This document shows positions 46,977-48,758 of a stretch of 64,000 nt of DNA, piece after piece. The DNA is from Methanotrichaceae archaeon (GTDB lineage: Archaea > Halobacteriota > Methanosarcinia > Methanotrichales > Methanotrichaceae). The notes beneath the pieces were generated by a model that worked only from the letters and a program-made list of their open reading frames with translations, ran no database searches and was not told where the DNA came from. The position numbers were made by a program, and so were the translations under genes. Where the stretch lies: assembly GCA_963754945.1 (NCBI GenBank), contig CAVWIG010000028.1:96001-160000 (forward strand), in the 5' to 3' direction. Each line of letters begins with the position of its first letter. Within the stretch, counting starts at the first letter, position 1.

Positions 46977-48758
46977 TTATCTTGAACAACCTGATATTGA
47001 TTCAGACACACGCATTGATTCTCCATTTGCAAAAATATCAATTGTGCCATTTTGTGAAACACATACGACTGCTGTCTTAGGACATTCCTTACTGGTTCTG
47101 TATGCGGCAACTTTCCTAGCACCGCCCTTCTTTGGAAATGATTCACTAGTATCCTTATTCGAAATAATAACTGACGCGTCCAGAACTATACCCTTTTTCG
47201 ATATAAACACCGCTCCATCTAATTTGGCTATCTCAGAGATCTCGCCTATCTCAAATGATAGTATCTTTTGTTTTTTAATCCGGATTTTTGGGTCTTCGTG
47301 TCCAAGGTCTTTTGATTTCTCTAATCCTATTACAAAGAGCCCTCCATATCCCCGGACGACCATTTCTCGAGATATTTCAAGAACCCTCTCCATTACCTGT
47401 CGGTCAATCCAAGGCGTAAAGCTGATAATTTCTTTCAGTCCTATCGGTGTGTCGAATTGCCAAGAACCTTTCTTCTCTGATAGCTCTGCAACTGCTTTCA
47501 ACTCTCCATCCCGATACACAGCAATAGACTTGCGTTTTCGGCGAAGAATCAATCCAATCGAATCAGTGTCTAATGTAGCTTGTCGGAAAGCTTCAATTTC
47601 CTTATAATTCTTACCACTAAGTTCAAGGTGCGATATCCCAAAAAGTTTGCCCTCCCTATCAAATAGAAAAACCGCTTCGGTTTCTTGTAACGCATCATAG
47701 TAAGGTATAAGTTCTTCTAACTTTTCGGAACTTTCGCATTTTATATTATCTGGGGGATCAACCTTTGCATCCGAACCAAACATGCCGGTAAGCTCATCCT
47801 CGTCACCAATTAGGATTGAACAGCCTAATGATCGAGACTCAACTTTTATATTCGAAACAGCAAATAGATGCATTACAAGCTCTGAAAGAACTCTTTTTCT
47901 ATCGATATCCGTTTCATTCCCATGCAATAAGCGAATAAATTGCATGAGTCTACTTTCTTCTACAATCCTGTCCATTGGAAGCCCAATACTAAGAGATTGT
48001 AGCCAGTGATCCAAAAAATTTTTTATCAGATCAAGCTGATCCACGTTTTTCTGCTTATAATAAACCATTTTATATCCCTTACGGATTTTATCAGCCTTCT
48101 CCGGATTGGACAAGATCACGGGAACTATATTGTCTTCTGCATCATCATGCAGACTGTCTAGTGGCTTTTGAGCTAGGCAATCGGGGCAATCACTTGGATC
48201 ATACATTTCCGAATGATCCGTAAATAGTGAAAAAACCTTGTATTCATTACCATCATCCACCTCCACTTTATGTTCTCTGCTACGATCAATGGCTACTACA
48301 ACTCGAACAATTTTTGCCTTATGTTCTTTGAGGGACAGAATCGATGACTTTAGAGTACGTCCGGTCATAAATATATCATCTACTAGTACTACACCCGTTA
48401 AGCCATCTGGATGATCTTCAATACCTCCTGTCGCCTTTGTTCCATCCCACGCATTCCACGTAATTTTACCTGCAGTACGTCGGCCTGCTAAGCATTGCAC
48501 TTTTAATTCTTCAGCAAGATTAATTGCAAGTAAGATTCCACCAATTGTACTAGAAGCCACCATTTTGGGTTCAATATCAGCGAGCTCATTAGCCATTGCA
48601 TTTGCGAATTCTTTGCAAGTTTCTGGATTCATCATGCCAATTCGCGCATTAATATATGTTCTCGAATGCTTGCCACTTGAAAGTTTGAAGTGCCCATCAT
48701 CATGATAGCATCCATCATTTTTCAATGAATTTTCCCATTTTTTTTGACTTGGCTTCAT
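46977..48758 (-). CDS. PyrE-like PRTase fused to tandem DisA_N/DAC-like domains
   Basis: GHFKLSSGKHS, VLVDDIFMTG, CPDC; middle ESRSLGCSILIGD...IAVYRDG; C-terminal GYGGLFVIG, AKLDGAVFI, GGARKVAA, VSQNGTI. Confidence 0.85.
   Translation of the reverse strand: MKPSQKKWENSLKNDGCYHDDGHFKLSSGKHSRTYINARIGMMNPETCKEFANAMANELADIEPKMVASSTIGGILLAINLAEELKVQCLAGRRTAGKITWNAWDGTKATGGIEDHPDGLTGVVLVDDIFMTGRTLKSSILSLKEHKAKIVRVVVAIDRSREHKVEVDDGNEYKVFSLFTDHSEMYDPSDCPDCLAQKPLDSLHDDAEDNIVPVILSNPEKADKIRKGYKMVYYKQKNVDQLDLIKNFLDHWLQSLSIGLPMDRIVEESRLMQFIRLLHGNETDIDRKRVLSELVMHLFAVSNIKVESRSLGCSILIGDEDELTGMFGSDAKVDPPDNIKCESSEKLEELIPYYDALQETEAVFLFDREGKLFGISHLELSGKNYKEIEAFRQATLDTDSIGLILRRKRKSIAVYRDGELKAVAELSEKKGSWQFDTPIGLKEIISFTPWIDRQVMERVLEISREMVVRGYGGLFVIGLEKSKDLGHEDPKIRIKKQKILSFEIGEISEIAKLDGAVFISKKGIVLDASVIISNKDTSESFPKKGGARKVAAYRTSKECPKTAVVCVSQNGTIDIFANGESMRVSESISGCSR

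Follow-up and report, generated by a model that had tools for sequence, protein, structure and literature searches.

Diadenylate cyclases (DACs) were thought to be housekeeping synthases of cyclic di-AMP (c-di-AMP) until two preprints of August 2026 placed DAC domains in anti-phage defence (bioRxiv 10.64898/2026.08.10.743927; PMC13640721). As described in the accessible parts of these preprints, CdaG/DS-2C is a large protein of the order DACNG-DACNH-DAC, encoded beside CBASS operons, in which a non-catalytic domain stands ahead of a live DAC; DACNH is very distantly DAC-like and lacks catalytic residues, CdaG is associated with defence islands and has a GC content below that of its host (PMC13640721), and DS-2C makes c-di-AMP in vitro (bioRxiv 10.64898/2026.08.10.743927). 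The same partly accessible sources describe PanS, the minimal DAC of Panoptoo / PanDA, as a single, constitutively active domain of ~150 aa that comes with a 2TM-beta effector, has DG[AF] (DGF) and GGR as its only essential motifs and makes 3'3'-cUA or c-di-AMP (bioRxiv 10.64898/2026.08.10.743927). Here we describe a gene of a Methanotrichaceae archaeon (GenBank assembly GCA_963754945.1) that resembles CdaG/DS-2C in placing a non-catalytic domain ahead of a live-type DAC in one large protein, and differs from it in its N-terminal PyrE-type phosphoribosyltransferase (PRTase) domain and its archaeal host. The gene occupies positions 46977..48758, minus strand, of a 64,000-nucleotide stretch of contig CAVWIG010000028.1 (positions 96,001 to 160,000; hereafter the window). 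CdaG/DS-2C, so far as it is described in the accessible parts of the preprints, is the nearest known design, and we tentatively read the gene as part of a conflict-type cyclic-dinucleotide signalling module related to it in design, with a putative function in defence; this is our leading reading, held at somewhat less than even confidence.

In PurR, PyrR and GfcR, the PRTase domain serves to sense a ligand. The type I PRTase fold is also found in non-biosynthetic roles in defence: the accessible parts of the respective reports state that the ShosT PRTase disrupts purine metabolism (PMC11961720) and that the PRTase effector of type III-A3 retrons (PMC12746101) and the OpnC PRTase of Ophion (bioRxiv 10.1101/2025.09.30.679545) are required for defence. 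For DACs, it is the N-terminal regulatory domains that define families (Galperin 2023, as cited in the accessible part of PMC13640721). No description of a PRTase-DAC or TIR-PRTase-DAC protein was found among the papers listed in full-text searches of the literature, although the Galperin 2023 census of 22 DAC families may list the architecture. The accessible parts of the two DAC preprints (bioRxiv 10.64898/2026.08.10.743927; PMC13640721) mention neither phosphoribosyl nor PRTase, and no mention of extra PyrE-like partner genes was found in the searchable literature.

Domain architecture

The open reading frame (ORF; P0001) encodes, from an ATG start, 593 aa in four parts: a PyrE-type PRTase, a helical linker, a pseudo-DAC and a live-type DAC. 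Its position agrees with that given in an earlier note made from the letters of the window, and every string quoted there (GHFKLSSGKHS, VLVDDIFMTG, CPDC, ESRSLGCSILIGD, TEAVFLFD, KLDGAVFIS, GARKVAA and VSQNG) is present in the translation. The AlphaFold2 model of the full-length protein, built on a 24-row alignment, has a pLDDT of 79.6. The GC content of the ORF is 39.7%, against 50.1% for the window. Comparison with the 75%-identical relative on contig L032 gave a pairwise dN/dS of 0.13 over 583 codons, with values of 0.08–0.21 across the four segments indicating purifying selection on each. Motif counts given below refer to a 24-sequence family alignment, 23 sequences of which span the loop that binds phosphoribosyl pyrophosphate (PRPP).

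That the N-terminal part is a PyrE-like PRTase, as the earlier note proposed, is borne out by several searches. The domain (about residues 10–201; 48156..48731, minus strand) matches Pfam Pribosyltran (PF00156) over residues 57–178 (E 1.1e-9, 38.2 bits against a cut-off of 26.3), and the best NCBIfam match of the 593-aa protein is pyrE_Therm (TIGR01367, E 3e-24). The nearest solved structure by sequence is the Helicobacter orotate PRTase (OPRTase) 4paw (E 1.5e-6), and a Foldseek search with the full-length model ranked OPRTases top, with 4paw first (E 5e-10). Scores remain under the equivalog cut-offs for both TIGR01367 (85.7 bits versus 150.25) and TIGR00336 (56.2 versus 106.8). The type I PRTase fold and the acidic PRPP loop (VLVDDIFMTG) are present, and the DD pair of the loop is kept in 21/23 sequences. 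In common with the Thermus/Helicobacter-type OPRTases, the domain has GHF-L-SG-HS, the acidic PRPP loop, (V/I)DR and a C-terminal CP-C (CPDC here); unlike in 4paw, the loop opposite the ER...RRGF region reads GRR...ITWN and is poorly aligned.

The ORF was rejected as the OPRTase of the genome because a canonical pyrE (128.8 bits) is encoded on another contig. Another PyrE-like open frame of 224 aa lies ~28 kb away in the window (18805-19176, minus strand; TIGR00336 45.5 bits, under the cut-off), and one more of this sub-cut-off kind is found on contig C16. Although the domain shares the type I PRTase fold with ShosT, the type III-A3 retron effector and OpnC, it does not belong with those clades: the Pfam PRTase-CE family matches 12/60 members, with E 6e-6 at best, and by sequence the domain is a PyrE derivative. 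NCBIfam matches to purR_Bsub, PyrR and GfcR are weak. The PRTase domain is followed by a helical linker (about residues 205–282; 47913..48146, minus strand), which has no Pfam or NCBIfam family match and for which the full-length model predicts helices at 211–217, 219–236, 239–257 and 262–279.

The C-terminal DAC (47004..47411, minus strand) matches Pfam DAC (PF02457) over residues 467–580 (E 3.1e-12, 46.6 bits against a cut-off of 27). Detection in the Protein Data Bank (PDB) required a profile: phmmer with the domain alone gave no match at E<=10, while a profile of the domain and its short relatives matched DacA, DisA and CdaA with E-values from 1e-9 to 4e-4. As the earlier note had it, the domain keeps DGA (D514-G515-A516) and has RKV (R548-K549-V550, within G546-A547-R548-K549-V550) in place of the canonical RHR. 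DGA is found in 22/24 family sequences and G-[AS]-R in 23/24; the equivalent of RKV is R-[KR]-x in 22/24, His occupies the second position in none of the 24, and RKV itself occurs in the window protein only. S568-Q569-N570 corresponds to S-Q-N in 23/24 sequences, while a second group of relatives, ~780 aa long, mostly keeps R-H and often has S-E-N. The substitution of VSQNG for an acidic residue, also read in the earlier note, is real as a string, but the acid is usual in CdaA/DacA: in the profile alignment to PDB sequences DacA has GTRHRAA and VSEETG, whereas mycobacterial DisA has SVSHSM at the acid site, so the missing acid is not disqualifying here. The domain has thus retained DGA and G-x-R as a minimal catalytic set and is probably active.

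The C-terminal domain has the DAC fold and DGA in common with DisA, CdaA/DacA and DacZ/CdaZ, but the protein scores far below the NCBIfam cut-offs for DisA (20 bits versus 201) and DacZ (NF041371, 23.6 versus 430, over the DAC core only). In its reduced motifs it is like PanS, with DGA and G-A-R present and the H and second R absent; unlike the single-domain PanS, the DAC is here the last of four parts. Membership of CdaG/DS-2C is unsupported as well: Pfam matches to DACNG or DACNH at E<=1 were found in 0/60 members, and the NCBIfam DS2_3 model (NF053872) scores 14.6 bits against a cut-off of 630, over the DAC part only.

The earlier note had also proposed a degenerate DAC-like domain in the middle of the protein, and structure searches with AlphaFold2 models bear this out. 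Residues ~205–460 have no match to Pfam or NCBIfam hidden Markov models, Pfam DAC included. In the full-length model, the order of secondary-structure elements in residues 285–436 repeats that of the C-terminal DAC (453–585). The pseudo-DAC (47424..47912, minus strand) was modelled alone as residues 283–445 on a 60-row alignment that includes the second, ~780-aa family (pLDDT 89.1, pTM 0.86). The best 50 Foldseek matches of this model in the PDB are all DAC chains (CdaA, DacA, CdaM, DacM and DisA; E 1e-5 to 4e-4, TM 0.45–0.57). An independent search of 48,161 representative chains with VIA-align returned six chains at Z>=5, all of them DAC proteins (Z 8.6–11.2, 126–133 residues aligned), the next match being at Z 4.1. 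Alignment of the middle and C-terminal domains by hhalign is colinear but not significant (P 0.014, probability 3%), and the proposed DAC duplication therefore rests on predicted structure.

The pseudo-DAC lacks the catalytic residues. Across the family, E, K, R, D, N or H stands opposite the catalytic D514, and the alignment has a gap where G-x-R would be; without equivalents of the Asp and of the G-x-R Arg, the domain would be a DAC fold unable to perform DAC chemistry, and pairing of the two domains in cis could form at most one phosphodiester bond. At the same time it is the most constrained segment of the protein (dN/dS 0.08) and has an invariant polar set of its own, E307/R309 being kept in 23/24 sequences and D355, E359, T395, R407 and R409 in 24/24; in the wider set of 60 sequences, E307, R309, D355, T395, G431 and W433 are each kept in >=90%. 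A complex prediction for two copies of residues 283–593 scored 0.21 against a mark of 0.42 and weighs neither way on binding.

A TIR domain has been lost from the window gene

The five closest relatives (P0002–P0006; 75–77% identity, 757–803 aa), one of which NCBI assigns to a Methanothrix sp. metagenome-assembled genome (MAG), have the order TIR-PRTase-pseudoDAC-DAC. These five are the members with a TIR_2 match (PF13676) among the 26 family proteins (E 4.9e-9 for P0004). In the window, a 45-codon ORF directly upstream (48755..48892, minus strand) corresponds to about the first 45 residues of TIR in these relatives, and its TGA overlaps the ATG of the main ORF (ATGA). No intact TIR domain was found at the locus; what remains are these first 45 codons, as a separate ORF.

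The contig of one TIR-bearing relative, L032, is syntenic with the window, and blastn pairs L032 244-441 with window positions 48962-48765 and L032 938-2716 with 48755-46956. The 496 nt between these segments (L032 442-937), which encode the TIR core, are absent from the window. From this synteny we conclude that the window gene is a TIR-deleted derivative. Most of the family (19/24 in the alignment) consists of ~590-aa forms that have no TIR, and TIR is therefore not needed for the core function.

With respect to the earlier note, its reading as a whole is partly supported: the anatomy was right, while its functional idea, a mixed or pyrimidine-containing product or gating by PRPP/NMP, is made more plausible by PanS and less so by the lack of both catalytic equivalents in the pseudo-DAC. 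Absent from the note were the TIR stub, the relatives that bear a TIR, the setting in an island and the connection with PyrE, PyrF and PyrI paralogues, all of which change the most likely identity of the gene.

Distribution of the family

A word-index search of 5.8 billion proteins returned 26 family members. Full-length homologues with 38–43% identity come from Sedimentisphaerales, Chloroflexi and Desulfobacterales MAGs, that is, from three bacterial phyla, and further full-length homologues are present on metagenome contigs. Close to the host, the gene stands by itself: it is the single PF02457 match in its own genome (87.7% complete), no full-length homologue was found in the 40 relatives searched, and the tandem module was found in none of 400 genomes sampled from the phylum. 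Short DACs of ~200 aa in 5/400 phylum genomes were set aside as ordinary archaeal DACs with GTRH that are not family members. A DAC was detected in 1/24 genomes of the host family, as a weak match, compared to 13/13 and 2/3 in sister families, where the DAC gene is an open frame of about 300 aa. We regard the gene as a rare, horizontally acquired accessory gene in this archaeon.

An exhaustive HMMER search with residues 205–593 yielded 112 representatives, many of which (P0040–P0136) are proteins of ~770–800 aa that end in the pseudo-DAC/DAC module, preceded by about 470 residues. In those scanned (P0040, P0041, P0043, P0045 and P0054), Pfam matched DAC only and NCBIfam gave weak DAC-core matches only; for the N-terminal part of this ~780-aa family there is a weak GAF-like lead in one protein (Atlas 0.92). 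In one representative, P0099, a PPDK_N domain is fused after the pseudo-DAC/DAC module, and a PPDK gene adjoins the homologue at locus L016.

The insertion site in the window

The gene lies in a variable, low-GC insert of 3.9 kb between pyrH and adk (45167..49079), with 41.2% GC compared to 50.1% for the window and 51–58% for the flanking genes. One edge of the insert is pyrH (44429-45166) and the other a 5'-truncated adk (49080..49517, minus strand). Relatives without the DAC gene have adk and pyrH as neighbours, 41 nt apart in G004 and about 470 nt apart in G017, which indicates that the DAC gene was inserted between them. In G001, of the same genus, the gap holds instead a 469-aa NB-ARC/TPR gene (L059 2283-3692, minus strand), and the site is therefore a variable hotspot. 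Since adk and pyrH adjoin in relatives without the DAC gene, the adjacency of pyrH was discounted as functional at this locus.

The truncated adk encodes 145 aa, compared to 214 aa in G001, covers only positions 72–150 of the ADK profile and is the only PF00406 match in its 87.7%-complete genome; the explanation is either a broken bacterial-type adk or an imperfect assembly at 49518-49657. Two other ORFs share the insert with the DAC gene. The first, 105 nt downstream of it, encodes 270 aa (46059..46871, minus strand) with two N-terminal hydrophobic stretches, seen by eye, and a TPR-like C-terminal part for which there is an Atlas lead only (0.90–0.91); it has no Pfam match, is absent from the syntenic L032 and is found at the window locus only. 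As the only downstream ORF, it would be TPR-like, going by this lead, rather than beta-rich like the PanS effector. The second is an extra pyrI (45392..45886, plus strand), encoding the regulatory chain of aspartate carbamoyltransferase with no pyrB adjoining. Its genome has two pyrI copies, the one in the insert being 72% identical to that on contig C17, whereas each of five relatives searched has one.

Directly downstream of pyrH there is a partial second UMP kinase copy (43832-44350, minus strand; 172 aa, AA_kinase profile positions 75–233), and the pair of full and partial UMP kinase genes is common to the window and L032. In both, the pair is adjoined by a gene for an HrcA-type winged-helix protein with a CBS pair (42958-43845, plus strand, in the window); CBS pairs serve as c-di-AMP receptors in bacteria. 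The window also contains a 2312-aa ORF (24281-31219, minus strand).

Neighbours of the homologues

Two themes recur around the family loci: extra PyrE-like, PyrF or PyrI genes, and SIR2, TIR, reverse transcriptase (RT), toxin-antitoxin and nuclease genes. Pyrimidine genes lie within the fetched flanks of 10/18 distinct loci, corresponding to 6/14 kin groups; the queries were the pyr gene types already met in family loci, the chance expectation was not computed, and four of the eight kin groups without a pyrimidine neighbour have <2.5 kb of flank. Besides pyrH, which adjoins the gene in both the window and L032, and the extra pyrI of the window only, these neighbours comprise a PyrF gene convergent to the homologue (L017, L044), a PyrE-like gene adjoining it (L036, L041), and, at L037, pyrB together with two PyrE-like genes that both score above the TIGR00336 cut-off. 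A gene for a 444-aa double PRTase is found at L019, L033 and L034, convergent to the homologue in the latter two. The L019 copy, from Pirellulales, is 44.5% identical to those of L033/L034, so the pairing of the fusion with the double PRTase recurs, and the L019 genome has a canonical pyrE elsewhere.

The Pirellulales homologue (L019 5501-8432) is cut down to the C-terminal DAC, and the double PRTase downstream looks fragmented; beside the homologue are two ORFs that we take, by eye on their translations and not from a family scan, to be an IS21-type transposase pair. At L037, a 64-residue aspartate carbamoyltransferase-like fragment (1646-1837) lies just upstream of the homologue, with an intact pyrB 6 kb off on the other strand.

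Representing the second theme, a SIR2_2 protein (ThsA-like at 3e-16) is encoded near the homologue at L037, a pentapeptide-TIR_2 protein at L033, MNT/HepT and a reverse transcriptase at L018, PIN_12 and HNH at L038, and a DNA methylase at L036. In the ORFs scanned no CD-NTase neighbour was seen, without a systematic search for one.

Possible function of the module

The observations suggest that an accessory conflict module fits better than a housekeeping enzyme. This preference is based on the patchy spread across phyla, the GC deficit of ~10 points and the variable site, at which a sister species has an NLR-like gene; on the TIR fusion and on neighbours that encode NADases, nucleases and RT; and on a lineage without other DACs. 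Defence DACs have been flagged by signals of a similar kind, including a GC gap, according to the accessible part of PMC13640721.

As a conflict module, the gene would be a TIR-less derivative of a mobile, self-contained unit of TIR, PyrE-type PRTase, pseudo-DAC and DAC. The live DAC would condense ATP, possibly with a second nucleoside triphosphate, into a cyclic dinucleotide, with the two catalytic domains facing each other contributed by different chains. The pseudo-DAC would most likely gate the live DAC, as a regulatory partner or by binding a ligand, in the way proposed for CdaG/DS-2C and its DACNH. The PyrE-type domain, which occupies the place of the regulatory domain in DAC families, may report PRPP, orotate or a pyrimidine-nucleotide ligand; alternatively, it may itself be an output and deplete PRPP or pyrimidine precursors. 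That extra PyrE-like, PyrF and PyrI genes recur nearby would point to the pyrimidine pathway. The arrest arm would consist of NAD-consuming domains, fused as TIR in the closest relatives and encoded as SIR2 or TIR genes beside other homologues, and would have been lost here through the 496-nt deletion.

Several points weigh against a conflict role, which is proposed from sequence and for which no defence phenotype is known. No cyclic-dinucleotide receptor was identified. PADLOC-DB 2.0 gives only PRTase_III-A (E 0.0082) and ShosT (E 0.018), both over the PRPP loop, and matches 0/5 of the ~780-aa relatives, and a scan of viral contigs produced 22 pattern matches, none confirmed as a homologue. 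A fused effector of known kind is absent from 19/24 aligned members, one Asp of the PRPP loop is lost in 2/23 sequences, and GGA replaces DGA in 2/24. Several of the neighbours are housekeeping genes: pyrH and adk in the window are core genes, and the PyrF beside the Chloroflexi homologue is the only OMP decarboxylase match in its genome. In this genome, expression would depend on restart at the ATGA after a frame-shifting deletion whose junction is known solely from a 54-contig assembly; reads of four sequencing runs (sample shares <=0.20) cover only 48996-49300, on the adk side, and none crosses 48755-48765.

The main rival, kept in play by the pyrimidine link, is that the protein is a metabolic sensor-cyclase, in which the PyrE-type domain would bind PRPP, orotate, orotidine monophosphate (OMP) or uridine monophosphate (UMP) and tune a c-di-AMP-type signal for pyrimidine synthesis or physiology related to it, with no role against viruses. 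We consider this rather unlikely, yet a live alternative. The pyrimidine genes in the flanks of over half the distinct loci, the recurrence of the fusion with the double PRTase in Pirellulales and L033/L034, and the weak GAF-like lead in the ~780-aa relatives are what such a sensor would lead one to expect, as is the definition of DAC families by N-terminal regulatory domains (accessible part of PMC13640721). For several of the PyrE-like and PyrI neighbours, however, the genome encodes a canonical gene elsewhere, which makes them extra copies. A purely metabolic role also fits poorly with the low GC, the insertion at a variable site, the TIR fusion and the neighbouring SIR2, TIR, RT, toxin-antitoxin and nuclease genes. 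Moreover, with the gene absent from the 40 relatives searched and the host family otherwise without DAC genes, save for the one weak match in 24 genomes, there would be no conserved c-di-AMP network for a sensor to plug into. From the pyrimidine link we would also place the PRTase domain and the PyrE-like partners within the mechanism.

It is less likely that the gene is a relic in this genome, an ORF left unexpressed or useless by the TIR deletion and frameshift and not yet decayed. The deletion of 496 nt is not a multiple of three and the 45-codon stub ends in a stop; the flanking genes are damaged or duplicated, as seen in the 5'-truncated adk and the partial second pyrH copy, and the Pirellulales homologue has been reduced to its DAC domain. 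Against decay, all 593 codons are intact, with the ATG overlapping the TGA of the stub, TIR-less forms of ~590 aa are common in the family, and the dN/dS of 0.13 is low, though this value is pairwise and thus not specific to the branch that follows the deletion.

We doubt that the pseudo-DAC and DAC form an asymmetric site in cis that makes a mixed, pyrimidine-containing dinucleotide with the PRTase domain supplying or gating the second substrate: PanS makes 3'3'-cUA through an asymmetric dimer (accessible part of bioRxiv 10.64898/2026.08.10.743927), the conserved charged residues E307, R309, D355, E359, R407 and R409 could hold a nucleotide and PyrE-like, PyrF and PyrI neighbours are common, but in the pseudo-DAC nothing corresponds to the catalytic Asp and G-x-R falls in a gap, so that the pair in cis could make only one bond where a cyclic product needs two. 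Similarly improbable, in our estimation, is an extension of the conflict module into an immune nucleotide factory, in which an OMP- or UMP-type nucleotide made by the PRTase would sit in the dead half-site and be joined to ATP by the live one, the product, a non-canonical pyrimidine-adenine dinucleotide, would switch the NAD-consuming TIR or SIR2 arms, and the extra PyrE, PyrF and PyrI proteins would feed or buffer the reaction; as a variant, the protein may be a single-chain, Panoptes-like guard whose pseudo-DAC is the receptor of its own decoy signal.

Implications

The large multi-domain CdaG/DS-2C forms with their dead DACNH are left unexplained in the accessible parts of both preprints. 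The family described here adds an independent second case in which a dead DAC fold is fused to a live one; a PyrE-type domain is attached as well, some members have a TIR NADase in addition, and the archaeal lineage in which it is found here has no other DAC. It raises the questions of what a dead DAC is for, of a possible coupling between DAC signalling and NAD depletion, and of whether immunity senses or attacks the metabolism of pyrimidine precursors. Even a purely metabolic sensor-cyclase would represent a new regulatory input for cyclic-dinucleotide signalling.

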